A stretch of DNA of 42,704 nucleotides from Candidatus Omnitrophota bacterium. Its GTDB lineage: Bacteria > Omnitrophota > Omnitrophia > Omnitrophales > Aquincolibacteriaceae. Positions within the stretch are counted from its first letter, which is position 1, and each line of letters begins with the position of its first letter. The notes beneath the pieces are model-generated. The model was not told the DNA's origin. It ran no database searches and worked only from the letters and a program-made list of their open reading frames with translations. The stretch lies in NCBI GenBank assembly GCA_041651495.1, contig JBAZJC010000002.1, positions 1-42,704 of the forward strand, given 5' to 3'. The translations under genes were made by a program, and so were the position numbers. This document shows positions 2,445 to 32,036 of this stretch, piece after piece.

Positions 2445-2508
2445 AATACAGCTTTTGATTTAATATAAAAACAGGATTTAAAGTACCCGCTATTTCAGAT
2501 ACCGGCTG

Positions 2509-4461: not shown

Positions 4462-4502
4462 GTTTTCCGATTTTTTCTTTTCTTGAAATGAAAAACGGAG
4501 CC

Positions 4503-6936: not shown

Positions 6937-6953
6937 AAAACCTCTCCGATGAA

Positions 6954-9915: not shown

Positions 9916-9963
9916 ACAAACCAACCTCTCTCTTTATACTCCAAAATACGAAAGAAAACCGTT

Positions 9964-9995
9964 GAGCCCAACCCGCTATTTTCTGCGTTTGGGCC
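9964..9995 (-). terminator. Possible weak intrinsic terminator after the DUF2079 gene
   Basis: Imperfect hairpin: GCCCAA (9966..9971) pairs with TTGGGC (9989..9994). On the minus strand it is followed by the T-rich stretch GGTTTTCTTTCGTATTTT. It lies in the 118-nt gap between 10043 and 9924. Confidence 0.3.
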
Positions 9996-10042
9996 ATAAC
10001 ATACGCTGTCGCCGGCGATCATCTTGCGAGCCCAATAAGTTT

Positions 10043-11650: not shown

Positions 11651-11653
11651 TAT

Positions 11654-14164
11654 CTACCTTTTGGTTCTTACATTACCAAGCTTACGAGCATTTAAAAAAT
11701 CAATGAAAGAAAGGAAAAAGCCGAGTACGAATGTAGCAGAAGCGATAATGAGGCCGAGTCTCATGATGGCGGGTACATATACAAATTTAACTTGGTGCTT
11801 CCCTTTGGGAACCTTTACAGATTTAAAAATATAATTCGCCCGACTGATGGTCGTTTGTTTTCCATCGAGGTAAGCTTTCCACCCCGTATCAAAAGCATCC
11901 GTGATAACCAGAAACCCATCTTCGAAAAGCGAGATATTCATTACCAGTTCATTCGCGTTATAGGTTTCGATTGTAATCTCGTCATCGAGGCCGGCGCGAT
12001 CCGGCATCTTGCCGTAAAGACCGTTGGCATAACGCGGATTTTCCAATAGCACTGTTTTCTGGAAATCGGTCTTTTTTTCCCGGAGCCGGTTCAGGACTTT
12101 TGCTCCATCATTCACGACTTCGGCTTCGTGAACAATGTAAGCACGTGGCAATGCATCAGAATTTTTAAAAATTTTATATTTTCCACTCTCATAGACAAGA
12201 TCGTACTGTTTCAGCGAAGCATCTTTCATAGTGATCACATATTTTATATTGGCCATATCCGCATAATAGTCATCAAACTCTTCTATCTCCCCCAAAAGCC
12301 ATCCGGGAATCTCTTTTTTAGCCAAAAGTTGAAAAAAATCAACATAGCGTTTTTTGACCAACGATCGATATCCTTCCGGGGTCTGTAGAGGATAAAGCAG
12401 GTTGGTTTCTGGCCTTAAAACTATATTTCGCGTGTCAATCTGTCTGAAATCGACAAGTGCAGGATTCTTAGGATCAATGAAAGGCTGCAGAGGCAGGACG
12501 CGAAAAAGTCCGGGGTCTTGAAGTATGAAATCCGCCTCTTGACGAAGAGGCGTCAGGCTTTGCGCGGAATAAGCCGTTGTGGGTCGCAAGTTAAAAAATG
12601 AATCCAGAAAGATGACCCCCAGAAAAAAAAGGAAAAGAACTCTGCGACTTAGCCAGCCTTTGAAATAGGAGGTAATACCAATGAATGTCAACGACAGGAT
12701 GAGAATGGGATTGGCATAGATTGTATTGAGAGGCGAGGCCCAGCATTTCAGATACGCAATGATCTGAAGAATGCGCCCCCGATAAAAGTCTTCCGAAGCA
12801 AAATAAAAATTCTGTTTTAAAACCATGGGCAAAATATGAGACAGGGAAAATGCGGTTAAGGCGTTTTTCCAAAAGGAAACGACGCACCAGAGGAAAAGTC
12901 TCAATAGGATAAGCGCTAAAAGCAGCGTGGTTATGATTTTTATAGAACGACTGATCCTGCTCGCGCGTTCCCTGTGTTGGTCAAAGGCGGCAAACCCAAA
13001 AGCGGCAAGCAAGCTGACCGCAAATCCATAGATCAGATAGATCCGGTTAATGACGGGCAGGTCCTTCAAAACGGGAATATATTGAATAAAGAAAAAAAGT
13101 GGATTCAAGATCAGATAGCCGAGGATGCAGACCGCGGAAATGCCGAGAAACTTTTCAATGGAATGTTTTTTTTCTTTTAGAATGAGCAGAAACGCAAGAA
13201 GCAACGGGACGATCCCGACATAAGGCGCCTCCAGGAATCGAAGCTTCAGAAATGGAAGAAATTTTCGGAGGATCCCTTGTCGGATAACATCGTGTAAAAA
13301 ATTCAGGGTAGGATCTAATGAATTATAGAGATATCCCGGGAAAATCATCCCGATCCATTCAGTGGGAAACAAGATATTGATAATACCGCCCACAGCCTGT
13401 TGCCGATGTGACAGTGAAAGCAGCTGGTACACCCGGAAAAGATGGAAGCAGATCAGTCCCAGCGTCAACAGGAACGGAATGCAGGTTTTTAAAAATAGAA
13501 AAAAATAGTGACGCTTTGGGCTGTTCTTGCGGAGGAAAACCAGAATATACACGAACAAAAACATCGAAGAATAAATCACATATTGAGGATTCGCACTCAG
13601 GTAGTACCAGGCATTGGCGATCGATAGAAGAAAAGCCCAATAAAATCGTCGCGTGTGTATCCATTGGGTCGCAAGAACGAACAAAACCGGCAGGAAAAAT
13701 GTTGGGTTTTCAGTCGGCACATTGACGCTCAGGGTCAGATAAATAAACCCTCCCAAAAGTGCCGATTCGCGACTTAACCGGAATTGTTTTTCAAGCGACA
13801 GAAAAACAAAATACCCGGAAAGAAATGCCGAAATGGCAATGGCGCCATTCCAGGCGAAATGCAAACTCAAAAAAAACGTTAAAAAATGGCCAAGCGTGTA
13901 ATTGCTGAACGCGTCGAGTCCGTCCGGAGTTCCGCACAAAGCAAAAGGATTCCACAGAGGGAAAATATGGTGCCGTATCGAATTCTGAAAAAACGAAAGG
14001 CGACTATAAAATTGGCAGTAGAGATCATTTAAGTCCATGTAGAGTTTTGAAAAAAAATGAGGGTAATACAACGACGTCAAGCAAAAGAAAAAAAGGATGG
14101 GCCCGACGAAAAAAACGGTGTGGGAGCTTTTTTTCACCATCGTCTGACCCGGAATCATTTGCAT
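11654..14164 (-). CDS. YfhO-family GT-C membrane glycosyltransferase, paralog 1
   Basis: 836-aa polytopic ORF. The N-terminal block is DLNDLYCQFYSRLSFFQNSIRHHIFPLWNPFALCGTP. The C-terminal block is GWKAYLDGKQTTISRANYIFKSVKVPKGKHQVKFVYVP. Both are typical of the bacterial YfhO family. Confidence 0.75.
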   Translation of the reverse strand: MQMIPGQTMVKKSSHTVFFVGPILFFFCLTSLYYPHFFSKLYMDLNDLYCQFYSRLSFFQNSIRHHIFPLWNPFALCGTPDGLDAFSNYTLGHFLTFFLSLHFAWNGAIAISAFLSGYFVFLSLEKQFRLSRESALLGGFIYLTLSVNVPTENPTFFLPVLFVLATQWIHTRRFYWAFLLSIANAWYYLSANPQYVIYSSMFLFVYILVFLRKNSPKRHYFFLFLKTCIPFLLTLGLICFHLFRVYQLLSLSHRQQAVGGIINILFPTEWIGMIFPGYLYNSLDPTLNFLHDVIRQGILRKFLPFLKLRFLEAPYVGIVPLLLAFLLILKEKKHSIEKFLGISAVCILGYLILNPLFFFIQYIPVLKDLPVINRIYLIYGFAVSLLAAFGFAAFDQHRERASRISRSIKIITTLLLALILLRLFLWCVVSFWKNALTAFSLSHILPMVLKQNFYFASEDFYRGRILQIIAYLKCWASPLNTIYANPILILSLTFIGITSYFKGWLSRRVLFLFFLGVIFLDSFFNLRPTTAYSAQSLTPLRQEADFILQDPGLFRVLPLQPFIDPKNPALVDFRQIDTRNIVLRPETNLLYPLQTPEGYRSLVKKRYVDFFQLLAKKEIPGWLLGEIEEFDDYYADMANIKYVITMKDASLKQYDLVYESGKYKIFKNSDALPRAYIVHEAEVVNDGAKVLNRLREKKTDFQKTVLLENPRYANGLYGKMPDRAGLDDEITIETYNANELVMNISLFEDGFLVITDAFDTGWKAYLDGKQTTISRANYIFKSVKVPKGKHQVKFVYVPAIMRLGLIIASATFVLGFFLSFIDFLNARKLGNVRTKR

Positions 14165-14942: not shown

Positions 14943-15883
14943 GAATTTTGGGCTCCAAGCTTGGCCTTCAGTGCATCATACAAACGTGGAAAAAGAGCCT
15001 CACAAACGGCCTGAGTTCTCCCTTTCCAATTGTGAGGATGAAAAAAGAGATAATATCCCAAATATGGGAGCTGCCAAAACTTTTTCTGAGAATAAACATC
15101 GCAAAAATTCGCCAATTTTGCAAAATTGAACCTGCCTTTTAAAACAGCGGCCTTTTCGAAAAAGTCGATACGTTTTCGGATTTCGCCAAGGAAAACCTCA
15201 GGATCGAATAAGGACTTCCGGCCCGCACCGATAACATTCCTCTGATGCTGCCGGTACTTCACGAGTTTTTCTTTAGTAAAAAGAATCTTTCCCATCCCGC
15301 AGCTGGTCACAAAAGCAAGATGATCGTGCAAAAAAGGCACACCGCCGCGAAAGCTTAGAATCTTTTCCGCGACAGCCCGTCGAAGCATCATGGAGCATCC
15401 CGGCGTTATATTCCGGAACAGAACCCGTTCATCAAGCACCCCCCTCACAGGCTGGGTCGCGGACATCTTCCAGAATGAGCGATGGAGTCGATTCAAATTC
15501 TCATCACAAACTTCAAGATCAGAATAGACCAACAACGTTTCTTCGTTTGGCTCCAAAAGCCGCATTAAACGCTCAACCTTATCAGCACGCCAATAGTCAT
15601 CTTGGTCACAAAAACAGACGAAAGCACCCCGACAATGCCTAAGAGCCTTCAAAAAATTAGTTGTCACTCCAAGGCGTGTGTCATTGGAAAATAATCGAAT
15701 GCGCGTGTCTGATCCGGAGAAGTCACGGGCGATCTTGAATGTCTCATCCTCCGAACAGTCATCGCTGATAATAACCTCGAGATTCTTATAGGTCTGTGCC
15801 AGAACACTTCCGATCTGATCGGGAAGATAGCTCGCGCCATTGCAGGTTGCGATCACGATCGAAACAAGCGGGGCGCTGGTCAC
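14939..15883 (-). CDS. Glycosyltransferase family 2 (rhamnosyltransferase-like subgroup)
   Basis: LVSIVIATCNGASYLPDQIGSVLAQTYKNLEVIISDDCSEDET ... FVCFCDQDDYW. There is a 4-nt overlap with the wzx-like gene. Confidence 0.85.
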   Translation of the reverse strand: MTSAPLVSIVIATCNGASYLPDQIGSVLAQTYKNLEVIISDDCSEDETFKIARDFSGSDTRIRLFSNDTRLGVTTNFLKALRHCRGAFVCFCDQDDYWRADKVERLMRLLEPNEETLLVYSDLEVCDENLNRLHRSFWKMSATQPVRGVLDERVLFRNITPGCSMMLRRAVAEKILSFRGGVPFLHDHLAFVTSCGMGKILFTKEKLVKYRQHQRNVIGAGRKSLFDPEVFLGEIRKRIDFFEKAAVLKGRFNFAKLANFCDVYSQKKFWQLPYLGYYLFFHPHNWKGRTQAVCEALFPRLYDALKAKLGAQNS

Positions 15884-17367
15884 GAAGCCACCTTTTGAAA
15901 TCGTTTTGATTTAAGAAATTTTTCTTTCAGGATCGGCCACACTTCATATTTTCTATTGATGTGTATCAAAAACGGGAGGTAAACGGCCACCAAGCTAAAG
16001 ATTTGGCCGAACATTCGAGGAAGTAATGGGAGCACGCCCAGCATTCTATCCAGGGCAATAAGAACAAGAATCATAAAAACAAAATTGGCAAAAACCAAAA
16101 AATATTCCCGACACAACTCTCCCAATGTAAAGATATAACGCCCCATCAAAAGATGTAATGCCGTGAAGTTCACCATCATAACAGCCGTCATTATGATCGC
16201 TATCTCATTGATGCCAGCACCGGTCTTGATTGCAAGGAAAAGCAAAACGAAAGCGATAAAACACATACCCATCGCAATAGGAAATTGCAAAAAGTGCTTT
16301 TTACTTACAACAATGGCATTGCTATAAGTCTGCGTGAGCCCAACAAAAAACGTGCTGAGCGCTAAATATTTAAGGGCCACTATTCCCCCCTCAAATTTAG
16401 GAAGAATGAGATTCACAACAAAAGGAACCACAAACCAACCCAAACCTATCAGGATCGGCATCAGAATTGAGAAAACATGATTCGACTTTTTAAGATAACC
16501 CCGCAAATCGCGGACATTTTCGCCTTCCGCATATTTTTCCGATACATTGGGAAGCAGCACTACGCCAATTGAATTCGGAACACTGCAAATGAATCCTGCT
16601 GTCATCATTGCGATACTGTATAGACCAAGGGCTTCAAGTCCGAGATATTTTGCAATCATCATCTTATCGATCGTGAGAAGAACCGTTCCCGCGAGCGTCA
16701 GCATCATGAGAGGGAAACCGTATTGGATCAGTCCCATCAGTACTTTTGTGTTTAATGTCCAGCGAAATCGGAAATTTTCGTGATAAAGGATATAAACGAT
16801 GTTAAATACAAAACTCAGAACCATTGCCCACATAAAGCCGTACAGCCTAAAAGTTGACGAGAGAATCGCCACAAGAATGAAATTAACGACTGAGGATAGT
16901 GCCATTTGTTTCCCGGCCAACTTGAAATTCTTGTAGGCCCGGAGAAAGGAAATCAGAACATTGTTCAGCTGTTGCAAAATGACAAGCCCCGTGGCGATTA
17001 ACAATCCATAGAATAATTCTCGGGGGATCTGAGAGCGACGAATACAAGCGTAGACAAAAAGCCCGATCGAAAATAACATCGATGTTAGGAACGAAAAACT
17101 GAACATCACGTTTTTCATTTTTTCTGTTTCTTCGATCTTTCCCTGGGCCCTTTTAAAGGGAATTTCGATCGGGATAGCGTATGTGGCTCCTAGATTCACG
17201 TAATCGATATAGCTCAGAATCACTTGGACCAGGGACCAAACACCGGTCTGCAGAGGCCCAAGAAAATACCGGATGATAAGTGCTCCGGCCACGCTCACGA
17301 ATTGTGTCAGCACAAATGCGGACGAATAAATGCCGACTTGGCCCACCACTTCTTTAAATCGAGACAT
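15880..17367 (-). CDS. wzx: Wzx/MOP-superfamily polysaccharide (lipid-linked oligosaccharide) flippase
   Basis: Highly hydrophobic multi-TM ORF with a Polysacc_synt-like N-terminus (FKEVVGQVGIYSSAFVLTQFVSVAGALIIRYFLGP). ATG 17367 (MSRFKEV) is preferred. The ORF-track extension to 17484 is Arg-rich and overlaps the upstream gene by 131 nt. Confidence 0.75.
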   Translation of the reverse strand: MSRFKEVVGQVGIYSSAFVLTQFVSVAGALIIRYFLGPLQTGVWSLVQVILSYIDYVNLGATYAIPIEIPFKRAQGKIEETEKMKNVMFSFSFLTSMLFSIGLFVYACIRRSQIPRELFYGLLIATGLVILQQLNNVLISFLRAYKNFKLAGKQMALSSVVNFILVAILSSTFRLYGFMWAMVLSFVFNIVYILYHENFRFRWTLNTKVLMGLIQYGFPLMMLTLAGTVLLTIDKMMIAKYLGLEALGLYSIAMMTAGFICSVPNSIGVVLLPNVSEKYAEGENVRDLRGYLKKSNHVFSILMPILIGLGWFVVPFVVNLILPKFEGGIVALKYLALSTFFVGLTQTYSNAIVVSKKHFLQFPIAMGMCFIAFVLLFLAIKTGAGINEIAIIMTAVMMVNFTALHLLMGRYIFTLGELCREYFLVFANFVFMILVLIALDRMLGVLPLLPRMFGQIFSLVAVYLPFLIHINRKYEVWPILKEKFLKSKRFQKVAS

Positions 17368-19321
17368 GGATTTCGCCTCGAACCTTTTTCGAAATAAACT
17401 CCGTGACCCGCAAACTTGCCTGGCCACTTCGCTCGCCAAGGTAGTACACCTGTGTCGTGGATATCTTCTGCGATCTGGTTGCATACAACTTCCTATTGGG
17501 GAGTTTTTTCAAAGCCATTTCAAAACCTGCCACGTCGCGAACAACTTGACACAATCCATTTTCTTCGAGGCGCCGCACATGGCTACTATCTTGATGTTCT
17601 GGATCAAAGTAAAAAGCTGGGACACTGGCAATTCCAGCTTCAATCAAAGTTGAAGACCAGGGGCAAAGCACAATCGCATCACTTTTGGCCAAAAGAGCAA
17701 AAAAATCTTCGGAAGCTTTCGCGACACGCACACGACAGCCCGGCTTAATATCCTTCACCAATCGTTTCCACAGAGTTTCATCCTCGGAATAATGCGGCTT
17801 TACAGTTACGGTCAGGGACAAATTTCGCGAAGCCAACAAAAGGGTGCGGATCGCAAGCTCCTGAAAATACCGGTAAGCATAAATATCGCAACCGATGAAA
17901 CCAAGAATATCGGGAGAAGATGGCCAAAGGTAAGCACCGCAAAAAAGAACCCGCGTAGTGTCAGACACAGTTGGCGACGCATTCGAAATCAAACCGATCA
18001 AGCGATCATATCGAGGAATCCCGCTCACCACCACCTTCTTTGGATCCCAACCTCGCTCGACATAGGTATCTTTTTCATACAATCCTTGCACAAAGGTATA
18101 TGATTGCGAAAAACATCGCGCCGTCTCAGGGACAATGCAATCGATGGCCATATTAGCGTGAGAAATACAAAAGTTCTGGACACCTGCTTTTTTCATGAAT
18201 TCGGCAAAAAAAGCGTGCGCATTAAAATCTTCATCAAGTAAAACCCCGGATAGACCGAGCACTTTCAAGACCTGCTTATAGACCGCCTCTTCCTTCGAAA
18301 AACGTTCAAAATACTCCGTCATATTGCTAAAAATCTTCTGTTTGATGAAATTCTTGAAATCATGCGTTTCGTATTGAAAGAGACCACGACAGGCGGGATG
18401 ATCCAACGCAGCAGACAGTTCAGCAGCCGCGGTTTGCAATGGACTTTCGCATTCATCTTCCGGATCTAGCAAAAAACAGGACCGAAGAAAATACGGCAAT
18501 CCCATCTTGAGGGAAAAACAAAAGTGGTCAAAATGAAACCGGTCATCGTAAAAACATATATCACAGTTTTGTTTCTTGAGCTGAACCATGGTGGATGCTA
18601 GATGGCGAAGCGTACCAAATGCCATTATCTCGTAGCCATGACGCGGTCGCACTGTTGCACTGTAAATTTTTTCCGTAATATTCCTTAAGAATTGCTTCAA
18701 CTTCGAAAGCAACGATGACGTCTCAAAAAGCGGCTCTTTGATCTGAGAAAGCTCAAGAAGATGGATCTTTCGCCCCCTCATGGCAGCAATCTCATGTATG
18801 AAATAATTCAGCGTCGCATTGCCGGATAATTCCGGATATTTGTCACTGACCTCACCGCTAAAAACATAAAACTCATCGACTGTGTTTTTTGCAACGATGT
18901 GGCAAGCGTAAAGATAATTTTTAACTGCGGAAATAAGAATGACCGAAAACCATAAAAAGATCACAGAGGCATAGTCGTAAACTTTAAAAAGCCCCTTCTC
19001 CCTGCAAATCCGGATCCATTCCCCCGCTTCACCAATCCCCCAATTATTTATTTCCTTCCACCGATCCTTCAGTGAAAACTCATTGAGCTTCTCAAAACAG
19101 ATATTCTTTTTTTTAAGAAATTCGTAAAACCTTTCGTTGTCACAAAAGAACAGGACTTCGTCCTTTGAGAGCCTCATCTCTTCGAACTTCTCAAACTGCT
19201 TCTTATTAGATAAAACGATCGCGTTCATGAAGACACCTTGTTCCGTAGATTTCACGGCAAAACGAGAACATTTTTTTAGATTGGAATTAACGGACCGTCC
19301 AAAGGGATTGCGAGCATTCAT
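17354..19321 (-). CDS. Orphan 655-aa protein with a GT-B/TagF-like C-terminal half; candidate glycosyl- or nonulosonate transferase
   Basis: ATG 19321 forms an ATGA overlap with the upstream stop. ATG 19228 (MNAIVLSNKK) is an alternative start. I recognise no family for the N-terminal half. The C-terminal half has VVVSGIPRYDRLIG, TVTVKPHYSED and LLAKSDAIVLCPWSSTLIEAGIASVPAFYFDP. These are reminiscent of CDP-glycerol glycerophosphotransferase / capsule-synthesis GT-B enzymes. Confidence 0.45.
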   Translation of the reverse strand: MNARNPFGRSVNSNLKKCSRFAVKSTEQGVFMNAIVLSNKKQFEKFEEMRLSKDEVLFFCDNERFYEFLKKKNICFEKLNEFSLKDRWKEINNWGIGEAGEWIRICREKGLFKVYDYASVIFLWFSVILISAVKNYLYACHIVAKNTVDEFYVFSGEVSDKYPELSGNATLNYFIHEIAAMRGRKIHLLELSQIKEPLFETSSLLSKLKQFLRNITEKIYSATVRPRHGYEIMAFGTLRHLASTMVQLKKQNCDICFYDDRFHFDHFCFSLKMGLPYFLRSCFLLDPEDECESPLQTAAAELSAALDHPACRGLFQYETHDFKNFIKQKIFSNMTEYFERFSKEEAVYKQVLKVLGLSGVLLDEDFNAHAFFAEFMKKAGVQNFCISHANMAIDCIVPETARCFSQSYTFVQGLYEKDTYVERGWDPKKVVVSGIPRYDRLIGLISNASPTVSDTTRVLFCGAYLWPSSPDILGFIGCDIYAYRYFQELAIRTLLLASRNLSLTVTVKPHYSEDETLWKRLVKDIKPGCRVRVAKASEDFFALLAKSDAIVLCPWSSTLIEAGIASVPAFYFDPEHQDSSHVRRLEENGLCQVVRDVAGFEMALKKLPNRKLYATRSQKISTTQVYYLGERSGQASLRVTEFISKKVRGEIHVSI

Positions 19322-20367
19322 CCGAAGAATTTCTGATATTCGCCATTGGCGCGATTAAAATCTTCCATTTGGCCGATATCGAGCCAATATTCCCTAATAG
19401 GAAAAGCAGCCACTCTTTTCCTCTCATCAATCAATCGGTCAAATAATTGCGGCATATCATAGGGCTTATTTTGGGGGACATACTTCAAAAGTGAGGGCTC
19501 CAACACATAGATTCCGGCGTTCACAAAAAAACGATGCACAGGCTTTTCATCAATCGCCCGAATATATTGTTGATCCATCGTAATCACCCCAAAAGGAACT
19601 TGAAAATCATATTCTCTAACACACATAGTCGCCGAAACATTATTTTCGTGATGAAAATTCAACAGATGCGAAAAATTGACCTTGGTCAACAAATCTCCGT
19701 TCATAACGATGAGCGGTTCTCTGGGTTTTTGAGGTAATAGACTCAGCGCACCTGCCGTTCCCAATCGCCGGCTCTCTTTAAGGTACTTCAGTTCGACGCC
19801 CCATTTGGAACCATCCCCAAAATAGTCACGGATCATTTCATCCAAATAGTTAACTGCCAAATAGAACTTTTTAAAACCGAACCCAACAAAATTCTCCAGG
19901 ATCGTCGCCAAAATAGGCTTGTCGCCAATATGAATAAGCGGTTTAGGACGGTCATTGGTAAGCGGCTTCAAACGACTGCCAAGACCACCGGCCATTAGAA
20001 GCACCCAATTTTCTCGACTTTTTGACTGAATGAGATCATCCAATATTTCAAGCCCTACAACACTCCCTCCTGCATCCAGAACCGGGATTTGATGGATGAA
20101 ATGTTTTTCCATCCTCTTCAACAATGATTCGCCCGTTTGCCCCATCTTCGCATAGATCGGCTTTGGATTCAGCACCAGTTGAACATTGTCGTCGAGGGAA
20201 ACACCCCTTAATATCCCGCGACGGACATCTCCATCAGTGACCGTCCCCAACAGCTTTCTTCTTTTCCCGACCACGACCGCGATCTGTGCAGAACTGGCAT
20301 CAATCGTTTTCAGAACACTTTTTATAGAATCTGACGGCAAAACAAGAGTCTTCTCCCAATCTTTCAT
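19318..20367 (-). CDS. CBS-pair + sugar-phosphate nucleotidyltransferase (PtmE-like)
   Basis: The N-terminal CBS pair is AVVVGKRRKLLGTVTDGDVRRGIL ... IHQIPVLDAGGSVVGLEILDDL. It is followed by the NTP-transferase motif LLMAGGLGSRLKPLTNDRPKPLIHIG. Confidence 0.8.
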   Translation of the reverse strand: MKDWEKTLVLPSDSIKSVLKTIDASSAQIAVVVGKRRKLLGTVTDGDVRRGILRGVSLDDNVQLVLNPKPIYAKMGQTGESLLKRMEKHFIHQIPVLDAGGSVVGLEILDDLIQSKSRENWVLLMAGGLGSRLKPLTNDRPKPLIHIGDKPILATILENFVGFGFKKFYLAVNYLDEMIRDYFGDGSKWGVELKYLKESRRLGTAGALSLLPQKPREPLIVMNGDLLTKVNFSHLLNFHHENNVSATMCVREYDFQVPFGVITMDQQYIRAIDEKPVHRFFVNAGIYVLEPSLLKYVPQNKPYDMPQLFDRLIDERKRVAAFPIREYWLDIGQMEDFNRANGEYQKFFG

Positions 20368-20393
20368 CTTAGGTGCTCCTGGTTAACATGGGT

Positions 20394-21617
20394 TTATGAA
20401 ACTCGAAATTTTAGTTTCCATTCGCCATGAATTTTTTCCCATAAATGCGGCGAACGATATCTGTCAATGATGTCCCAGAATTTCTCCTTGGTAATCCCGA
20501 TATATTCCAGAAAATCCTTAAAATGCCTCTCAGGGAACTCCCCATCAAACCTGCGAACAAGAGAGACACCTTCCTCGCGGGTAATATGATTATTCCGAAT
20601 TTCGATCGAAGCGTCCTCTGTACAACGGCCCCGCCCTGTTTTAATGAACCACGTGTAATAATGAAAATCGTCTACTTTATCATCCAAACTGGCGTATTTA
20701 CTGTATGTTCCCGGCGTTCGCCCATCCGGATTAACAGAAAAACCAGTATGCTCTATCGCATAATAGAAGTTTTTCTGCGGGTCATAATTCATGTAATAGG
20801 GCATGACATGAAATTCGATCCCTGAGCTCAAAAGCCGGTCGGCTTCCGCGGGCAGATAGGGATTTAGCTCTTTCATATTAATTCCATATTGAGACAAATC
20901 CTTGATCGGCACGCCTCCCAGGAAAATCTCATCTTTTTGTTCACGTGTAAACAATTTTGGGTCCATGCAGGGGCCATCCCATTTCACATCCCCGCCAAAT
21001 CCTCTTTCTGCGTAACTATCGCCAAAAAATATCAGCTTGATCCCTTTTTCCAGCGCAATCTTGGGGGCCAAGTTATATTGCCCTATGACAAAAGGCTGAA
21101 AGGGATGCAGCAGGTTTTCAAATGCAAGTCCCGTTAATTTCCGATGGACCTTTCCATTCGGTGTAAAAAGAACGTTGTCAAAGCCCGTATGAATCCACGC
21201 CTGAAAATTTTTCCATCCAATCTCGGTATAAATATGAGGTGCCCAGGTGACCGTTAACGGATTCATTCCATATTTATATTTGAGCATATGAGCTACATAA
21301 GCACTGTCTTTGCCTCCGCTCCCGGGAACCAGGACGTCATAATACCCGTCTTTGCGACGATGCCGGTTCAGCAAATCCCTTAGTTCCCTTTCCCGTTCTT
21401 CCCAATCGATCATTTTCTTTTTTTCATAATAACGGCAAGCCAGACAAACGCCTTCGTCATCGAACAAAACGGTCCTTTTTTTCGTCGTAGGCGTATCCTT
21501 GTGCTGAACCGATCCCAACATTCTCTGGTTCGACTCAACGCATTTCTTGCAATAAACCACTTTGGGAGGCAACCCAAAATAAGCTTGGCATTCTTCTTTC
21601 GATTCTTCCGGTTTCAT
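20394..21617 (-). CDS. N-acetyl sugar amidotransferase (PP-loop ATP-pyrophosphatase; WbpG/PseA family)
   Basis: The PP-loop is VLVPGSGGKDSAYVAHML. The N-terminus has paired Cys motifs (CKKCVESNQR ... CLACRYYEKK). The gene sits directly downstream of the hisF/hisH paralogs, as in known acetamidino-sugar loci. Confidence 0.8.
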   Translation of the reverse strand: MKPEESKEECQAYFGLPPKVVYCKKCVESNQRMLGSVQHKDTPTTKKRTVLFDDEGVCLACRYYEKKKMIDWEERERELRDLLNRHRRKDGYYDVLVPGSGGKDSAYVAHMLKYKYGMNPLTVTWAPHIYTEIGWKNFQAWIHTGFDNVLFTPNGKVHRKLTGLAFENLLHPFQPFVIGQYNLAPKIALEKGIKLIFFGDSYAERGFGGDVKWDGPCMDPKLFTREQKDEIFLGGVPIKDLSQYGINMKELNPYLPAEADRLLSSGIEFHVMPYYMNYDPQKNFYYAIEHTGFSVNPDGRTPGTYSKYASLDDKVDDFHYYTWFIKTGRGRCTEDASIEIRNNHITREEGVSLVRRFDGEFPERHFKDFLEYIGITKEKFWDIIDRYRSPHLWEKIHGEWKLKFRVS

Positions 21618-21678
21618 ACATTCCTCCTGTTTTCCATAATATTAATTATGATAAACTTCCATTAAAGAGCAATCACTC

Positions 21679-22341
21679 TTATGACGCTCCACCACGCGAG
21701 ATCATTTTCGAGAGATTCTGATAAATAGCAATTCCACTTGCGCCACTCCGTTCGGGATGAAATTGAAAACCATAAACATTGTCACTCTGGATCGCTGTCG
21801 CAAAACGGAACCCGCCATATTCAGTCCGCGAAAGCACAAGCTCGTTATTTTCCGGAGCGCAATAAAAAGAATGAACAAAATACATTGAGGTACCCTGCGG
21901 GATCCCGGAAAGCAGGGTATTTCCCCATCGATCATGCTTTTCCTCAGAAAAAATCGCGTTCCAGCCAATGTGCGGAACTTTCAAATTCTGGGCAGTGCCA
22001 AACTTCTCTCTCAACGGCAGCACACTTCCCGTGATTATGTCCAACCCTTTGTGCTGTCCAAATTCATGGCTCTGGGTCATCAAAAGCTGCATTCCCAAAC
22101 AAATCCCAATAAAAGGTTTCCCTTTTTTTATTTCCTCAATAAGAACCCCCTCCAGATCGAAGGCCTTAAGATCGGCCAAAGCCTTTCCGAAAGCACCGAC
22201 TCCAGGCAATATAATCGCGCTTGCATTCTGAATATCGCGAGGAGCATTGGTTACAAGGGCCTTCATCCCACAATATTCACAAGCGTGCTTCACGCTGAAG
22301 ATATTTCCCAAACCATAATCAATAATCGCAACAGACTTCAT
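21679..22341 (-). CDS. hisH: Imidazole glycerol phosphate synthase HisH-like glutamine amidotransferase paralog
   Basis: MKSVAIIDYGLGNIFSVKHA ... ILPGVGAFG ... GICLGMQLL ... FQFHPERSG is a class-I glutaminase triad context. Confidence 0.85.
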   Translation of the reverse strand: MKSVAIIDYGLGNIFSVKHACEYCGMKALVTNAPRDIQNASAIILPGVGAFGKALADLKAFDLEGVLIEEIKKGKPFIGICLGMQLLMTQSHEFGQHKGLDIITGSVLPLREKFGTAQNLKVPHIGWNAIFSEEKHDRWGNTLLSGIPQGTSMYFVHSFYCAPENNELVLSRTEYGGFRFATAIQSDNVYGFQFHPERSGASGIAIYQNLSKMISRGGAS

Positions 22342-22350
22342 TACGTACCC

Positions 22351-23190
22351 TCATCGAGCAGAAGAAATTCCCCGATTCACAAGGAATGTTCGCAAATCTG
22401 AAAGTTCAACTGTATCAACTTTTGAATATCCTTCGCCGCTCTGGATAAAATTAACATTACCTTCAGTAAACTCATTGGCATCCTGTTTGGCAACCTTAAT
22501 GCACTGATAATGCAAAATTGAACTCATGGCAACAGCATCAGCCTTTCCATCCACGATAGCTTCAAGAACATGATCGACGGTACCCGCCCCTCCCGCGGCG
22601 ATAACCGGAATAGAAACGCTTTCGGAAACGCTCCGGATTAATTCGATGTCGTATCCCTTGCCTGTTCCTTCACGATCAACCGCCGTCAACAATATTTCTC
22701 CTGCCCCGAGCTCAGCAACTTTTTTTGCCCACGCCACAGCTTCAAGTCCTGTCGGGATACGGCCATTATCCGTAAAACACTCATAGGTTCCATCTTTGCG
22801 CTTAATAACTTCCATCGATATAACAATAGTGGAAGAACCAAATGCACGCGAAGCCTCGCAGATCAATTGTGGATCCCGGACTGCAGCCGTGTTCAGCGAC
22901 ACCTTATCAGCACCGGCGCGAAGAATTGCCTTGATATCCTGAAGCGTTCGCAGACCCCCTCCCACCGTCAACGGAATGAATATTTCCCGTGATGTTCTCT
23001 CAACAATATGGATCAGGCTATTCCGTTCATACAAACTAGCAACTGCATCAATGTAAATAAGCTCATCTGCCCCAGCTTCATAATAATAGCGGGCAAAATT
23101 CTCCGGCTTTCCAAGGACTCTCAATCCTTCAAGGTGAATCCCCTTAACAAGATTGGAACCTTTAATATCTAACCTAGGAATCAATCTCAT
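22351..23190 (-). CDS. hisF: Imidazole glycerol phosphate synthase HisF-like cyclase paralog
   Basis: MRLIPRLDIKGSNLVKGIHLEGLRVLG ... GADELIYIDAVAS ... PLTVGGGLRTLQDIKAILRAGADKVSLNTAAV ... IAAGGAG. Confidence 0.85.
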   Translation of the reverse strand: MRLIPRLDIKGSNLVKGIHLEGLRVLGKPENFARYYYEAGADELIYIDAVASLYERNSLIHIVERTSREIFIPLTVGGGLRTLQDIKAILRAGADKVSLNTAAVRDPQLICEASRAFGSSTIVISMEVIKRKDGTYECFTDNGRIPTGLEAVAWAKKVAELGAGEILLTAVDREGTGKGYDIELIRSVSESVSIPVIAAGGAGTVDHVLEAIVDGKADAVAMSSILHYQCIKVAKQDANEFTEGNVNFIQSGEGYSKVDTVELSDLRTFLVNRGISSAR

Positions 23191-23948
23191 CGACGCACAA
23201 CCGTGATCCCGCGGTTCGTTGGGCTCGGCATCTTATTCTTTAAAATTAATTCGGCCATATGAAAGTCCCACGGCGTGTCAATGTCGAGAGATCGAGAAGC
23301 GGGCATTATGTACGGGAAAGATCTGCGAGGGTATAACGTCTTTTTTTCTTTCAAAACTGAGCTGCGAATAACATAAATCGCACCGTTAGGCGCGAAGCAT
23401 GCCGCAACCGGACGGTCCTGATAATATTTTATTTTCCGGAGCATGCCCTTACCGGTTAACTGCCATACGAGTGTGGTGTTTTTTTGTATCTCAAAAACGC
23501 TTACCACCGCATCCGCATTATTTTTAATGGCAATTTCAATTGCCGCATCAATATCGTCGGCCGTCCGCAGCGGCGATGTCGGTTGCAACAATACGATATA
23601 TTCAGGAAGTCTCTTCTCATGTTCCTCGAGCCATCTGAGAACATGGATGAGAACATCCATGTGGGGAGTACCGTCTTTCGCTAAAGCTGCCGGACGCATA
23701 AAAGGAACTCCGACTCCCCACTTTCTTGCCACCGCCGCGATACGACGATCATCTGTTGAGAGAATAACGTGATCCAAAAAACGGCTTTTCAAGGCCGCTT
23801 CCGCCGTCCATGCAATCAGCGGCTTCCCCAAAAGGTTCTTGACGTTCTTCCCAGGAAGCCTTTTTGATCCGCCTCGTGCAGTAATTAAACCGAGAGTATC
23901 GAACTTCCCGGGCATCATTTTAGTTTTTTTGGAAGGAGTGAAAATCAT
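23187..23948 (-). CDS. neuA: CMP-nonulosonate synthetase (acylneuraminate cytidylyltransferase family)
   Basis: LGLITARGGSKRLPGKNVKNLLGKPLIAWT ... VLLQPTSPLR. There are ATGA overlaps on both sides. ATG 23918/23915 are alternative starts. Confidence 0.85.
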   Translation of the reverse strand: MIFTPSKKTKMMPGKFDTLGLITARGGSKRLPGKNVKNLLGKPLIAWTAEAALKSRFLDHVILSTDDRRIAAVARKWGVGVPFMRPAALAKDGTPHMDVLIHVLRWLEEHEKRLPEYIVLLQPTSPLRTADDIDAAIEIAIKNNADAVVSVFEIQKNTTLVWQLTGKGMLRKIKYYQDRPVAACFAPNGAIYVIRSSVLKEKKTLYPRRSFPYIMPASRSLDIDTPWDFHMAELILKNKMPSPTNRGITVVRR

Positions 23949-25129
23949 ATCGTCATCTTCTTTTTTATCAATTCAGATCCAAGCTCAATCATGGCTAAGG
24001 TCTCTGCGATTTTTTTGCCGGCATCACCCACCCCGTACGGATTTTCACACTTCTTACAATGAGTTCTGAAATCCTCATCAAAAAGAGCCTTACGAATAGC
24101 CATCTTGATCTCTTCGTGAACATACCCGGCATCAAGAACATTCGTTGCGCGCAAACGCCCTTGCTGCCTTGATCCGATGTTCACTGCAGGACATCCCAAA
24201 GCAGGTGTTTCTTTAATACCGCTTGATGAGTTCCCAACGCAAACGCCGAGACCTCCCCCTAAACCACAATGGTAGAGGATTCCATGGTAGTTGTACCGTC
24301 CCAGGCTGCTGAAGACCTGCACGCCTTTGATCTTTTTCAAACTCCAAGCGTTCAACGCATCAATGATCCTCTTCCCTCCGGCATCATTATTGGGATAAGT
24401 TGCAATAATCTGACAGCCTTCCTTTGCCAGAATTTCCAAGACCTCAAGCGATGGCTTAAGCTGCACCATGGCATCGTCACATTCCGTAGCCACCGAATGT
24501 TGCGTGAAAAGAATAACAGGTTTTCCAAAATCGATCCCATAGCGTTTCTCAAGTTCAGCTTTTGACGCATAATTTCCAGCCGCAATCAGATCGATTGCAG
24601 GAAATCCGACATTGAAAACTCGCCATGGCTCCTCTCCCATTGTACGTATTCGACGAGCAGCATCTTCATTGGTCGTAAAATGAAGATGAGCAAGCTTGGT
24701 CATCGCATGGCGCACAGAATCATCAAGCGCGCCTCCTTCCGTAATATCCCCGCCCTCAATATGGACCGTCGGGATCCCCATCTGAGTACCTGCAATCACG
24801 GCCGCAAAACCTTCAAAACGATCCGCATAAACCACCAGAACATCCGGTTTCAGTTCGTCCAGGACCTTACTTATATTAATCACCCCGGAACCAATGGCCT
24901 GCGCGGTTGAAAACAACGAGTCCTGCGACATTTCTATCTTGATCTCACGAGCGATCTCAAAACCGTCATTTTGTATCTCAGCCAGTGTCTTCCCGAAATC
25001 CTTATCAAGATGGGCTCCGGAGACAAGAAGAAAATATTTTAACGCGGGATGCGCTTGAATTGCTTTTAGTATCGGATATTGAAGTCCATACTCTGCCCGA
25101 TTCCCTGTAAAAACCGCTATTTTTCGCAT
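23945..25129 (-). CDS. neuC: Hydrolysing NDP-N-acetylhexosamine 2-epimerase (NeuC/LegG family)
   Basis: MRKIAVFTGNRAEYGLQYPILKAIQAHP ... VHIEGGDITEGGALDDSVRHAMTKLAHLHF ... NSSSGIKETPALGCPAVNIGSRQQGR. Confidence 0.85.
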   Translation of the reverse strand: MRKIAVFTGNRAEYGLQYPILKAIQAHPALKYFLLVSGAHLDKDFGKTLAEIQNDGFEIAREIKIEMSQDSLFSTAQAIGSGVINISKVLDELKPDVLVVYADRFEGFAAVIAGTQMGIPTVHIEGGDITEGGALDDSVRHAMTKLAHLHFTTNEDAARRIRTMGEEPWRVFNVGFPAIDLIAAGNYASKAELEKRYGIDFGKPVILFTQHSVATECDDAMVQLKPSLEVLEILAKEGCQIIATYPNNDAGGKRIIDALNAWSLKKIKGVQVFSSLGRYNYHGILYHCGLGGGLGVCVGNSSSGIKETPALGCPAVNIGSRQQGRLRATNVLDAGYVHEEIKMAIRKALFDEDFRTHCKKCENPYGVGDAGKKIAETLAMIELGSELIKKKMTI

Positions 25130-26181
25130 GAAATCGGACCTCCTTCAAAGTTAAGAACATCTTCAGGACGGATGTGGGCATGGGCCAACAAGTCTCGTAC
25201 CGCAATTTTGTGAAGCACCTTATCAAGGTCTTTTGCCAAAATCGGACCTGTGCCGGGCCTTTTAACCCATGTATTTTCGCTATTGAAAGTTTCACCTTTT
25301 CGAATAGGTTTCGTTGTCACTACCGTAGCATAGGCAAAATCGATAACGGGTTGTTCCTCAGCTAAAATAGTTTTCGCCCCTCCACGGGCTTCCCAAATGG
25401 CACGACCGCCTTTGACTAACTCACCTAGCTCCTCCGGATTAATGGAGATGGGGATATCAGGCCCCGGCCAATCTCGACTGATCGTAAAATGTTTTTCCAC
25501 CGCAGTAGCACCTAAAGCGATGGCACCTAAGCATGTATAAATGCCCAAAGAATGGTCACTTAAGCCAACCTCCAGACCAAATTTTTCTTTGAGTTTGTGA
25601 ATAGCTGCCAACCTAACTTTATTGTAAGGCGTAGGGTACATGGAAGTGCAGTGCATGAGCATCAGCGAACAGCCCTGGGCCTGAATGATCTGGACCGATC
25701 TGGTAATCGACTCCATGTCGTTCATACCCGTCGATAAGATAATAGGCTTTTGGAACTTCGCGATATGTTCGATCAGCGGATAATTGTTGCACTCACCGGA
25801 GCCAATCTTAAACCCTGCCACCTTCATTCCGTTCAAACGATCAGCCGCAGCTCGTGAAAACGGCGTACTCAAAAACAAAATACCTTTTTTTTTGCAGTAG
25901 GCTTGAACTTCGACCTCTTCCTTGGGCGTCAGTTCGCACCGTTTAATAATGTCCCAAAGCCGCTCATTCGATATTTTCCCCGGCTTCATGTCGGTCGGGA
26001 TCATCTCCTCCTCGGTAATATGGCACTGAAATTTTACGCAATCGGCTCCGTGCTCCTTAGCCGCATCCACTAATTGAATCGCTTTCTCGATACTCCCTTC
26101 ATGATTGATTCCAACTTCCATCATCACAAAAGGTGGTTGATCCAGACCAATCTTGCGTCCCCCAATTTTAAAATCAGACAT
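25117..26181 (-). CDS. neuB: Nonulosonic acid synthase (NeuB/LegI/PseI family) with C-terminal SAF domain
   Basis: PPFVMMEVGINHEGSIEKAIQLVDAAKEHGADCVKFQ ... FKIGSGECNNYPLIEHIAKFQKPIILSTGM ... GLSDHSLG ... AVEKHFT, plus a SAF-like tail (PIRKGETFNSENTWVKRPGTG). Confidence 0.88.
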   Translation of the reverse strand: MSDFKIGGRKIGLDQPPFVMMEVGINHEGSIEKAIQLVDAAKEHGADCVKFQCHITEEEMIPTDMKPGKISNERLWDIIKRCELTPKEEVEVQAYCKKKGILFLSTPFSRAAADRLNGMKVAGFKIGSGECNNYPLIEHIAKFQKPIILSTGMNDMESITRSVQIIQAQGCSLMLMHCTSMYPTPYNKVRLAAIHKLKEKFGLEVGLSDHSLGIYTCLGAIALGATAVEKHFTISRDWPGPDIPISINPEELGELVKGGRAIWEARGGAKTILAEEQPVIDFAYATVVTTKPIRKGETFNSENTWVKRPGTGPILAKDLDKVLHKIAVRDLLAHAHIRPEDVLNFEGGPISCEK

Positions 26182-26231
26182 CGCTACTCCTCCATCAAAA
26201 GTGAATGTTATTTAACTTCAGCCGAAAGAGT

Positions 26232-27086
26232 TCAAACCCACGAAGCAACCAATTCTTTTAAACCTTCCCGCAAGCTAACGCGCGCGCTCCATCCATAACA
26301 CGTCTTCATTTTGGATGGATTTAAAATAAGAGAGGAACGGATATGATCGTGATCCACACAACAAACGCCGCGTTTTTTCTGCCCCGCAATATCCAACAAT
26401 TCTCGCGCCAAATTCGCTACGCTTGTTCCAATGCCTGTTCCCAAATTAAAAATCCCATATTGACTGCGGGTCGCCAGGCAAATCAATCCACAAATTACAT
26501 CTGCAACATAAATAAAATCCCGCACAGGCATTGAGCATTTCACTTTCACCGGTCCTGACTGACCCAACTGTCTCATAACACCGGAAAGAACACTTGTTTC
26601 TGACATCCCAAGACCATAGACGTTCGCTATTCTCGCCACGGTTTGGTGTTTTCTCAAGATCACTTCTTCAACTGCATATTTGAGCCGTGCATAAGCACCG
26701 GAAACACTGAGCGCTTCGTCCTCGCGATGTGGCGCTTCGGACAAATCTCCGTAAACAGCAGCACTCGATGCAAATACCACTCGGGCAAAACGTTGAGTGC
26801 AGAGGTGTTTGGCCAGCGCTACGGCTTCCGGCAAGGCCGAATCGGTCTGGCTTTCCACTGCGAGGACATTATTATCACCCGCCAAATGCACGCAAACTGT
26901 GTCAGGGGTACCCATGACCTCGAGATAATTTTTAACACGCGTATATTCAATTCCAGGCTTTGCTCTAAAATCGCATTTTCTCCCGTACGCATGCACCGCA
27001 AACCCCTGACGCAATAGCTCAGAGCAAAGTGCGTGGCCAATAAATCCCGTAGCGCCCGTAACCGCAAAACGGATTTTGTTAGACAT
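26232..27086 (-). CDS. Short extended-SDR NAD(P)-dependent reductase/epimerase; candidate 4-ketoreductase
   Basis: 284 aa. The N-terminus is RFAVTGATGFIGHALCSELLRQGF and the catalytic Y-x3-K is YARLK. It overlaps the upstream dehydratase gene by 8 nt. Confidence 0.65.
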   Translation of the reverse strand: MSNKIRFAVTGATGFIGHALCSELLRQGFAVHAYGRKCDFRAKPGIEYTRVKNYLEVMGTPDTVCVHLAGDNNVLAVESQTDSALPEAVALAKHLCTQRFARVVFASSAAVYGDLSEAPHREDEALSVSGAYARLKYAVEEVILRKHQTVARIANVYGLGMSETSVLSGVMRQLGQSGPVKVKCSMPVRDFIYVADVICGLICLATRSQYGIFNLGTGIGTSVANLARELLDIAGQKKRGVCCVDHDHIRSSLILNPSKMKTCYGWSARVSLREGLKELVASWV

Positions 27087-28089
27087 TATAGGTGTCGATC
27101 TTATACGAAACCAAATTTTTTCTGTCCGTAAACCATTGTATTGTTTCCATCAGACCCTTTCGGAAGCCATCTTCACCGCCATAGACCGGATTCCATCCTA
27201 ATAGCTTCCTAGCTTTCGAATTGTCGGACCATAAGCGCTCCACTTCACTCTTGAGGGGGCGGATGCGTTCGGACTGCGATTTTATCTTGATCTTAAAGTT
27301 CATAAGCTCAGCGATTAATTGCGCGATATCTCCTATCGAAATCTCAAAATTGCTCCCCAAGTTGAGCACTTCCCCTGCAGATTTCGGGGTTTCCAAAGCA
27401 GCCGAATAGGCACGTGCGGTATCCTTGACAAAAGAGAGATCCCGAGTAGGGTGCAAACTCCCGAGCTTGATTGTACGTGAGCCGCTTGCGATCTGCGTAA
27501 TGATCGTGGGAATCACGGCTCTGGCAGATTGCCGCGGGCCGTAGGTATTGAAAGGCCGTATGATCGTGACGGGCGTTCCAAAAGAGCAAAAGAAAGACAT
27601 CGCAAGCTGATCGGCTCCGATCTTGCTCGCCGAATAAGGTGACTGTCCCTGTAGCGGATGATCTTCGGTAATAGGGACAAATTTTGCCGTTCCATACACT
27701 TCGCTCGTAGAAGTATGGATGACCCGCGAAAGTCCTAGCTCGCGAGCAGCCTGCAGAACATTAAGAGTGCCTTTGACGTTCGTATCAATGTAAGTATCCG
27801 GCGAATGGTAGGAATAAGGGATCCCGATCAAAGCGGCAAGGTGCATCACAGCATCACAGCCCCGCATCGCCTTTTTCACTCCGTGGGGATCACGGATATC
27901 CCCGGAAAAAACATCCAAGGTGTCTTTGACTGTTACGGGCAGCGTATCGAGCCACCCCCAGGAATTAAAGGAATTGTAAAGAACAAAGGCCCGAACATCA
28001 TAGCCTTCTTCCAAAAGATACTCTACAAGATGCGAGCCTATAAAGCCATCCGCACCCGTGACAAGAATTTTCTTTTTAAATTTCGGCAT
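27079..28089 (-). CDS. NAD-dependent NDP-HexNAc 4,6-dehydratase, LegB-like
   Basis: KKILVTGADGFIGSHLVEYLLEEGYDVRAFVLYNSFNSWGWLD matches my recollection of the LegB (Cj1319-type) N-terminus, including the YNSFN-WG-L block. The catalytic motif is YSASK. Confidence 0.7.
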   Translation of the reverse strand: MPKFKKKILVTGADGFIGSHLVEYLLEEGYDVRAFVLYNSFNSWGWLDTLPVTVKDTLDVFSGDIRDPHGVKKAMRGCDAVMHLAALIGIPYSYHSPDTYIDTNVKGTLNVLQAARELGLSRVIHTSTSEVYGTAKFVPITEDHPLQGQSPYSASKIGADQLAMSFFCSFGTPVTIIRPFNTYGPRQSARAVIPTIITQIASGSRTIKLGSLHPTRDLSFVKDTARAYSAALETPKSAGEVLNLGSNFEISIGDIAQLIAELMNFKIKIKSQSERIRPLKSEVERLWSDNSKARKLLGWNPVYGGEDGFRKGLMETIQWFTDRKNLVSYKIDTYNV

Positions 28090-30114: not shown

Positions 30115-30167
30115 GATAAAGTACAACTCCTTTTTAAAATGTTCGGCTCTATTGTAGCATTAAACAC

Positions 30168-32033: not shown

Positions 32034-32036
32034 TTT

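Follow-up and report, generated by a model that had tools for sequence, protein, structure and literature searches.

The window analysed here is a 42,704-nucleotide stretch of DNA from a Candidatus Omnitrophota bacterium (GenBank assembly GCA_041651495.1, contig JBAZJC010000002.1, positions 1 to 42,704). Between its genes for a cytidine monophosphate (CMP)-activated sugar and its wzx gene lies an open reading frame (ORF) of the minus strand, referred to below as gene X and its product as X. In an initial annotation of this DNA it had been described as an orphan and as a candidate novel nonulosonate transferase. In the direction of transcription, gene X is preceded by genes for a LegB-like dehydratase, a 284-amino-acid SDR protein, NeuB, NeuC, a PseF/NeuA-type cytidylyltransferase, WbuZ, HisH, WbuX and, directly upstream, a protein with CBS and NTP_transferase domains in Pfam. 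It is followed by wzx, GT2, Methyltransf_24, YfhO and DUF2079 genes. The CBS-nucleotidyltransferase is called PtmE-like here, an assumption of ours after the Campylobacter jejuni enzyme; this name was returned by no family search. Coordinates are collected in Table 1. Residues of X are numbered from Met32 of the longest ORF, and addition of 31 gives the 655-residue numbering.

Table 1. Gene X, its predicted domains and its neighbours in the window.
Feature	Position	Strand	Basis or remark
Longest ORF of gene X, 655 codons	17354..19321	-	
Gene X, conserved form, 624 amino acids and stop	17354..19228	-	Met32 start common to homologues; candidate CMP-nonulosonate transferase with a GT-B fold and three domains
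First 31 codons of the longest ORF (5' extension), with the ATGA overlap	19229..19321	-	Missing from homologues; no Shine-Dalgarno before the ATG at 19321
Shine-Dalgarno AAGGTG	19234..19239	-	5 nucleotides before the conserved ATG (19226-19228)
Extra N-terminal alpha/beta (Rossmann-like) domain, residues 1-195	18644..19228	-	AlphaFold2 secondary structure; family-conserved N61, W63, K103
Conserved hydrophobic helix YDYASVIFLWFSVILISAVKNYL, residues 84-106	18911..18979	-	Kyte-Doolittle mean 1.76 over 19 amino acids
GT-B N-terminal Rossmann domain, residues 200-415	17984..18631	-	Seven-strand beta/alpha pattern
GT-B C-terminal (nucleotide-donor) domain, residues 420-624	17357..17971	-	Region of the window protein matched by TIGR04396 (25 bits) and NF046086 (15 bits); GT-B C-domain profile matches in PDB
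wzx-type MOP flippase gene	15880..17367	-	Pfam Polysacc_synt_3 and Polysacc_synt; ATG 17365-17367
Soluble GT2 glycosyltransferase gene, 314 amino acids	14939..15883	-	Pfam Glycos_transf_2; conserved partner downstream of X-wzx
Upstream nonulosonate cassette	19318..28089	-	Pfam and NCBIfam matches; supplies the proposed donor

The 655-codon ORF is present as first described, and the strings GIPRYDRL, KPHYSED and SDAIVLCPWSSTLIEAGIASVPAFYF noticed in it were all found. Its ATG shares nucleotides with the TGA that ends the CBS-nucleotidyltransferase gene upstream (GGATGAATG), and translational coupling through this ATGA had been assumed. The overlap does exist but is probably not the start in use. 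The position of Met32 is the start in 15/15 homologues of the first alignment, and no Shine-Dalgarno was seen in the sequence upstream of the ATGA start. Because the homologues all begin at Met32, where AAGGTG is present, and none begins at the ATGA, the real product is probably the protein of 624 amino acids, separated by a gap of ~90 nucleotides from the upstream gene. The 5' extension is then probably an untranslated leader. The database gene caller's form of X has 633 amino acids. At the other end, the stop codon of gene X (TAA, 17354-17356) and the wzx start give an overlap of 14 nucleotides, in agreement with the overlap noticed at first, and GAGG lies 8 nucleotides upstream of the likely wzx ATG. 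A scan for promoters and terminators over 14.0-20.5 kb gave background level compared with shuffled sequence and hence no evidence of a separate transcription unit. Conservation in some 120 full-length relatives, with identities as low as 15-20%, shows that gene X is genuine and did not arise as an ORF by chance.

The AlphaFold2 model of X, built with a 16-sequence alignment, had a mean pLDDT (per-residue confidence) of 89.7 and a pTM (predicted template modelling score) of 0.90. It comprises three alpha/beta units, at residues 1-195, 200-415 and 420-624, the last of which contains six strands and a C-terminal helix (604-617). Two Rossmann-like domains, a cleft between them and a C-terminal helix that crosses back, the defining features of the GT-B superfamily, were all found in the model. 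In a Foldseek search against PDB, the model matched GT-B proteins with a probability of 1.0 and E of about 1e-9, over about 450 alignment columns for targets of about 370 residues. The targets were UDP-GlcNAc 2-epimerases (including NeuC), MurG, the CMP-Kdo transferase WaaA (2xci) and CalG1. Because of these matches, residues ~200-624 of the modelled protein are assigned to the GT-B fold.

The first 198 residues, modelled alone, gave a pLDDT of 81.9. For this N-terminal domain no neighbour in PDB was found by Foldseek at E<=1e-3; the best match was the N-domain of NeuC (E 0.03), followed by methylglyoxal-synthase-like flavodoxin folds. According to the model, residues 1-195 are an extra Rossmann-like domain private to the X family, with five strands and a long helical hairpin (50-114), and a role in acceptor or membrane recognition is proposed for it. 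The N-terminal ~330 amino acids, for which no family had been recognised at first, are therefore of two kinds. They comprise the extra domain, which has no significant match in PDB, and the N-terminal Rossmann (acceptor-side) half of GT-B (about 200-415). The earlier description of X as soluble is uncertain in view of the conserved hydrophobic helix at residues 84-106. A transmembrane span was ruled out for this helix because the model places the strands that flank it in a single sheet; it may lie buried in the core or make monotopic contact with the membrane.

Conservation was assessed over 123 full-length sequences, which are 15-72% identical to X. Three residues are invariant, namely H357, G403 and D408. 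Conserved in at least 90% of the sequences are N61, W63, K103, G205, H209, D334, S356, E385, P405 and R406 in the two N-terminal domains, and K477, H479, S525, E530 and R607 in the C-domain. E333 reached 90% only in an 80-sequence subset and has a high entropy rank in the 123-sequence alignment. Most of these residues fall into six short motifs. G205-x-x-x-H209 occupies the first strand-helix turn of the GT-B part, LLDEDF (E333-D334) and S356-H357 each stand at a strand end, and G403-I-P-R-Y-D408 is located at the last strand of the GT-B N-domain. In the C-domain, K477-P-H479 follows the second strand and S525-S-T-L-I-E530 is at the start of a helix. In the AlphaFold2 model the conserved residues are polar, lie at strand ends and face the region of the interdomain cleft.

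The order of these motifs is what we take to be the TagB/TagF arrangement, i.e. a histidine base in the N-domain (S/W-H), GxPRxD, K-x-H at the diphosphate and S-S/T. The catalytic histidines of TagF, one per Rossmann domain, are presumably H444/H584, and H357 (invariant) and H479 (>=90%) of X may occupy analogous places. For GT-B sialyltransferases, D/E-D/E-G and HP motifs have been described (PMC5420450). LLDEDF and K477-P-H479 are conserved in X and spelled differently from these; by analogy, the motifs of X may parallel those of the sialyltransferases.

A word-indexed search returned 17 relatives from Omnitrophica metagenome-assembled genomes (MAGs), all called 'hypothetical protein', and a second such search with an 80-sequence profile added neither relatives nor informative names. 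An exhaustive profile search was carried out over 1.84 billion cluster representatives (clusters at 50% identity). At E<1e-30 it yielded 169 representatives, about 120 of them full length (590-650 amino acids), so that X is no orphan and belongs to a sizeable family. The 5,665 representatives obtained at E<=0.001 presumably constitute the wider GT-B/TagB-like superfamily. The 169 clusters are mostly from Omnitrophota and Planctomycetia metagenome genomes, and the family as a whole, of about 170 sequence clusters, is unnamed or 'hypothetical' and comes from little-studied phyla. With the 16-sequence alignment as query, 10 genome loci were obtained; their sources are MAGs of Candidatus Omnitrophota and two MAGs named 'uncultured Planctomycetia'. 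Metagenome assemblies are the only source of most remaining members. One relative is labelled 'CDP-glycerol glycerophosphotransferase (TagB/SpsB family)' in IMG.

To place the family, 80 relatives were scanned against Pfam and NCBIfam. The most frequent match was NF046086, the 'BFO_1060 family glycosyltransferase' (67/80, best E 1.5e-15), followed by TIGR04396 (64/80, best E 5e-15) and PF04464 Glyphos_transf, the TagB/TagF family (55/80 at E<=0.01, best E 9e-15). Epimerase_2 was matched by 32/80 (best E 1.8e-09), Glycos_transf_1 by 26/80 (best E 5.4e-10), TIGR04331, the LIC12162 family, by 12/80 (best E 5.8e-06) and Capsule_synth by 3/80 (best E 4.9e-05). The NF046086 match extends in several members from profile positions 43-123 through 365 and thus covers both Rossmann halves. 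The TIGR04396 alignment is confined to the C-domain (profile positions ~195-367 of 427). The curated cut-offs are 200 bits for NF046086, 125 bits for TIGR04396 and a gathering score of 22.1 bits for PF04464; scores with NF046086 were 15-57 bits, so that even the best relative, with 57 bits, remains under its cut-off. By their own cut-offs, X is not a member of any of the three families. At the level of sequence profiles, the X family is distantly related to NF046086 and to TagB/TagF-type PF04464.

Against PDB, phmmer with the window protein gave chance matches only. The family profile reached generic GT-B C-domains (best 4xso, GT4-type, E 8e-10) and weakly KpsC (E 0.15), PseG (3hbm) and epimerases; TagF was not reached at E<=10. 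The window protein had no significant sequence match to the GT38, GT52, GT80, WaaA or KpsC/KpsS families, and the epimerase signature PF02350 was not matched in Pfam. The FlmG-type nonulosonate transferase (TPR plus GT-B) and the Maf-type transferase were also considered as candidates and set aside, as no TPR family and no Maf family were found in X by Pfam. In the literature, nothing was found on TIGR04396, nor on TagF together with nonulosonic acid.

The loci of X homologues (L numbers below) were examined by Pfam tables and by tblastn with window proteins. Twelve had enough flank to be judged (the window, L001, L003, L005, L006, L010, L012, L013, L019, L020, L021 and L023), and the short contigs L004, L008, L011, L014-L018 and L022 were left out of the judgement. 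In 12/12 of these loci a gene for NeuB and/or for a CTP_transf_3 protein, the CMP-nonulosonate synthetase type, lies within 10 kb of the X homologue. The co-occurrence with NeuB-family genes that the initial annotation proposed to look for is thus seen at the locus level, and no locus clearly devoid of a nonulosonate pathway was found among those that could be assessed. The cassette type varies from locus to locus while X keeps its place after it. A legionaminic acid (Leg)-like cassette with NeuC and PtmE is present in the window, L003, L006 and L023, the last with a NeuC-NeuB fusion and a PglD-type acetyltransferase. L019 has a pseudaminic acid (Pse)-like cassette (PseC/PseG/PseI types) with DegT, Glyco_tran_28_C (PseG-type), a formyltransferase and NeuB-SAF, and L001 and L021 have variants with B12 radical-SAM enzymes. 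Downstream of X, at a distance of 0-2 genes, 13 loci have a wzx gene, an arrangement kept down to about 20% identity, and a homologue of the window's GT2 gene follows wzx in L001, L003, L006, L012 and L015.

Within the window, family scans covered the ORFs of at least 200 amino acids. Among the proteins returned were GT2 proteins, one GT4, GT-C-type proteins (PMT_2, YfhO, DUF2079), methyltransferases and a B12 radical-SAM enzyme. In X and the other ORFs of this set, Pfam found no GT38/42/52/80, Maf or Capsule_synth protein, which bears out the earlier remark that no recognisable sialyltransferase-type gene is present. The only cytidylyltransferase seen in the window is that of the PseF/NeuA type. 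No aminotransferase or N-acetyltransferase family was found in the same ORFs, although aminotransferases are present in the related loci L003 and L023. For this reason the donor made in the window may not be legionaminic acid but a 7-hydroxy, 9-deoxy, 5-acetamidino nonulosonate.

X is proposed to be a CMP-nonulosonate transferase that acts on a lipid-linked glycan before it is flipped; the probability of this function is put at about 0.6. Among the products of the window it is the strongest candidate for installing the nonulosonate, as had been suggested at first, given its GT-B fold, its distant relationship to BFO_1060/TagB, the 12/12 loci and the lack of any other sialyltransferase-type family in the ORFs scanned. 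From the computed fold, conserved residues, distant families and neighbourhood, we infer donor, acceptor and residue roles as follows. X, about 624 amino acids long, would be a GT-B glycosyltransferase of the cytoplasm, probably membrane-peripheral, that takes the CMP-activated nonulosonate from the pathway of the upstream genes and moves the sugar to a lipid-linked intermediate at the cytoplasmic face. Wzx, from the overlapping downstream gene, would then flip the modified intermediate. By analogy with TagB/TagF and the GT-B sialyltransferases, the C-terminal Rossmann domain may bind the cytidine nucleotide, with K477-P-H479 and S525 at the phosphate and E530 at the ribose. The N-terminal Rossmann domain may provide the general base for the acceptor hydroxyl, either the invariant H357 or E333/D334 of LLDEDF. 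The invariant GxPRYD loop would sit at the domain hinge, and selection of the acceptor, or attachment of X to the membrane, would fall to domain 1-195. As a gene for a Wzx flippase lies directly downstream, a single addition is likelier than processive polymerisation.

Several points weigh against this assignment. The window protein itself has no PF04464 match in Pfam at E<=0.1, only a chance match to PV-1 (E 0.024). Its score with NF046086 is 15.3 bits (E 0.008), below 200, and with TIGR04396 25.3 bits, below 125 and confined to residues 473-616 of the C-terminal domain. The top structural matches, the UDP-GlcNAc 2-epimerases, share the fold but are not transferases. Some distant relatives adjoin CDP-hexose genes (L018) or CDP-alcohol phosphotransferase genes (L020, L022 and L023), and the nonulosonate may instead be transferred by one of the other glycosyltransferases of the window (three GT2, one GT4). 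The support for the TagB-like class so far is genetics from one genus, Tannerella. In Bacillus subtilis, SpsB, a TagB-domain protein encoded beside Leg genes, is dispensable for Leg transfer (PMC7439481); gene adjacency and a TagB domain are therefore no proof of transfer.

The relationship to TagB raises the alternative of a TagB/TagF-type phosphotransferase, in which X would use a cytidine diphosphate (CDP)-linked donor to place a phospho-alcohol (glycerol-phosphate, ribitol-phosphate or similar) on the same lipid-linked glycan and the nonulosonate would be moved by another enzyme. PF04464 is the commonest Pfam match in the family, a few members weakly match the TarB/TarF/TarL models of NCBIfam and one is named as such an enzyme in IMG. 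Yet NF046086 matches outnumber those of PF04464 among the 80 relatives, with a similar best E. CDP-OH_P_transf and small NTP_transferase genes are found near X-wzx in L020, L022 and L023, but where it is present, CDP-OH_P_transf could carry out such a transfer itself. No gene of the tagD/tarI/tarJ type for CDP-glycerol or CDP-ribitol synthesis is seen in the scanned window ORFs, and the association kept over divergent loci is with NeuB and CMP-nonulosonate synthetase and not with CDP-alcohol genes. A phosphotransferase is accordingly judged unlikely. An ordinary GT-B enzyme that adds a hexose or N-acetylhexosamine from a nucleoside diphosphate (NDP)-sugar to the repeat unit, and that is linked to the nonulosonate genes only by a shared glycan operon, is improbable to a similar degree. 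The weak Glycos_transf_1 matches in 26 of the 80 members, the GT4-type C-domain as best PDB profile match and the C-domain S...E, which is widespread among GT-B enzymes, are consistent with it. The GT4 matches are, however, confined to the generic C-domain, whereas the motifs GxPRYD and KPH, together with the matches to NF046086, TIGR04396 and PF04464, indicate the cytidine-nucleotide branch. In addition, the place of X right after the nonulosonate cassette is constant while the other glycosyltransferases of the loci vary.

Far less probable still is a GT-B-fold sugar-nucleotide epimerase or hydrolase (NeuC/PseG-like) within nonulosonate biosynthesis, to which the Foldseek ranking with NeuC among the targets, weak Epimerase_2 matches in 32 of the 80 members and the weak profile match to PseG could point. 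The window already has a full NeuC (TIGR03568, 392 bits), and X occurs both with NeuC or PseG types (window, L003, L019, L023) and where none is seen (L001). In its build, with 624 residues and three domains, and in its motifs GxPRYD and KPH, X is unlike epimerases, and its partner is wzx, not the biosynthetic core. Equally remote is a processive polymerase of a nonulosonate homopolymer or nonulosonate-containing polymer, an option that the initial annotation had kept beside installation and that the position of wzx disfavours. In its favour, GT-B polymerases include the TagF-like enzymes and the GT38 polysialyltransferases, and a ruler or anchor function is conceivable for the extra N-terminal domain. 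Processive cytoplasmic polymerases, however, usually pair with ABC-transporter export, and the family scans of the window showed neither an ABC transporter nor KpsM/T genes; X is partnered by Wzx, which serves short lipid-linked units. Transfer of a nonulosonate to a lipid-linked unit is the favoured reading. A more specific proposal goes further: X would found a new three-domain family of CMP-nonulosonate transferases, present in bacteria of Omnitrophota/Planctomycetota type, in which a private N-domain reads the lipid-linked acceptor, and the donor in this locus would be an unusual 7-hydroxy, 9-deoxy, 5-acetamidino nonulosonate made without an aminotransferase. This combination is tentative and rather doubtful as a whole.

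Other genes recur around these loci. A small gene of the HTH_17 (excisionase) type heads the nonulosonate operon in L001 (2256-2495), L003 (1310-1549), L020 (1651-1857 and 4077-4298) and the window (~28.1-28.5 kb); these Omnitrophota/Planctomycetia loci are several and unrelated, and the gene seems to encode a conserved regulator that leads the operon. A B12-binding radical-SAM enzyme is encoded in or beside the cassettes of the window (28549-30126), L001 (5382-6758) and L021 (2399-3961), and its recurrence may reflect C-methylation, or some other radical modification, of the sugar. Gene fusions were seen in L023, with an Epimerase_2-NeuB protein of 750 amino acids (879-3131), and in L021, with an amine-oxidase/GLF-like-NeuB-SAF protein of 794 amino acids (15-2399).

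On the side of wzx, a gene for a CDP-alcohol phosphatidyltransferase (CDP-OH_P_transf) adjoins it in L020 (14709-15545), L022 (7423-8241) and L023 (20580-21374). A GT2 gene is also beside CDP-OH_P_transf/wzx in L020 and L022, and the three loci often contain a ~245-amino-acid NTP_transferase together with GATase. This suggests a phospho-alcohol decoration of the glycans of those loci; no CDP-OH_P_transf was found in the scanned ORFs of the window. The most distant clade (~20% identity) has an AAC(3)-like acetyltransferase (Antibiotic_NAT) flanking X in L005 (8307-9077), L017 (590-1423) and L018 (3409-4230), with an acyl-CoA ligase and a small gene resembling acyl carrier protein (ACP) in addition in L005 and L018. 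These genes may serve sugar N-acylation. In L018 they lie upstream of X, and a CDP-glucose 4,6-dehydratase and a nucleotidyltransferase are encoded downstream. GT-C-type membrane proteins are unusually dense around the locus in the window (714-14164, 30168-34373 and 40205-41881), with two DUF2079, YfhO and two PMT/PMT_2 proteins; the same regions hold large multi-pass ORFs of 566, 621 and 778 amino acids that have no Pfam match. In L006, L019, L021 and L022, too, DUF2079 and PMT_2 are encoded downstream of X-wzx.

Few transferases are known for legionaminic, pseudaminic and related nonulosonic acids. If X has the proposed activity, its family would widen the sequence space of nonulosonate transferases, improve the annotation of surface-glycan loci in uncultured bacteria and provide enzymes for the chemoenzymatic attachment of unusual nonulosonates. 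If it is also a new family in the sense above, the dedicated pairing with Wzx could allow its members to mark, in the genomes of uncultured phyla, surface glycans that bear nonulosonates, and the family could provide a donor-tolerant transfer enzyme.

Among characterised proteins, the UDP-GlcNAc 2-epimerases (WecB/NeuC, PF02350) give the best overall superposition on X, with a template modelling score of about 0.6 on the target. They are of about 370 amino acids and not transferases, and the X locus has its own NeuC. GT38, GT52, GT80, WaaA (GT30) and KpsC/KpsS share the GT-B fold with X and use a CMP-ulosonic acid donor, as is proposed for X. The motifs of the GT-B sialyltransferases and CMP-Kdo transferases are spelled differently, and X has an extra N-terminal domain. 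TagB/TagF/TarF (PF04464) have a GT-B-like fold and a CMP-containing donor, the latter again proposed for X; they belong to teichoic acid export by ABC transporters, while X is linked to nonulosonate genes and wzx. With TIGR04396, 'surface carbohydrate biosynthesis protein', and TIGR04331, 'LIC12162 family transferase', both uncharacterised, the X family shares homology of the C-terminal domain. Both models were presumably built on Leptospira-type surface glycan loci.

The closest parallel is with Tannerella forsythia, where BFO_1060 is listed with Tanf_01245 and TFUB4_00887 as candidate nonulosonic acid transferases (PMC5420450). These are TagB / GT-B domain proteins encoded beside CMP-Pse or CMP-Leg genes, and deletion of Tanf_01245 or TFUB4_00887 leaves the S-layer O-glycan incompletely assembled (PMC5420450). 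TagB-like GT-B proteins beside CMP-Pse/Leg genes are therefore an already published candidate class, and X is not novel in the strong sense; its predicted function is well supported and no surprise. Like X, the Tannerella transferases (NF046086) have a GT-B / TagB-like domain and a gene directly beside the CMP-Pse or CMP-Leg cassette. The acidic pair of X (LLDEDF) and its conserved histidine in a P-H context may be comparable with the D/E-D/E-G and HP motifs. The Tannerella proteins differ in length, with 442-445 amino acids against about 624 for X, which is ~180 longer through the extra 195-residue N-terminal domain, in motif (HP against KPH) and in phylum, Bacteroidota against Omnitrophota/Planctomycetia. 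Thus the X family represents a second, divergent set of candidates, with the genomic signature of a nonulosonate cassette followed by X and then wzx.

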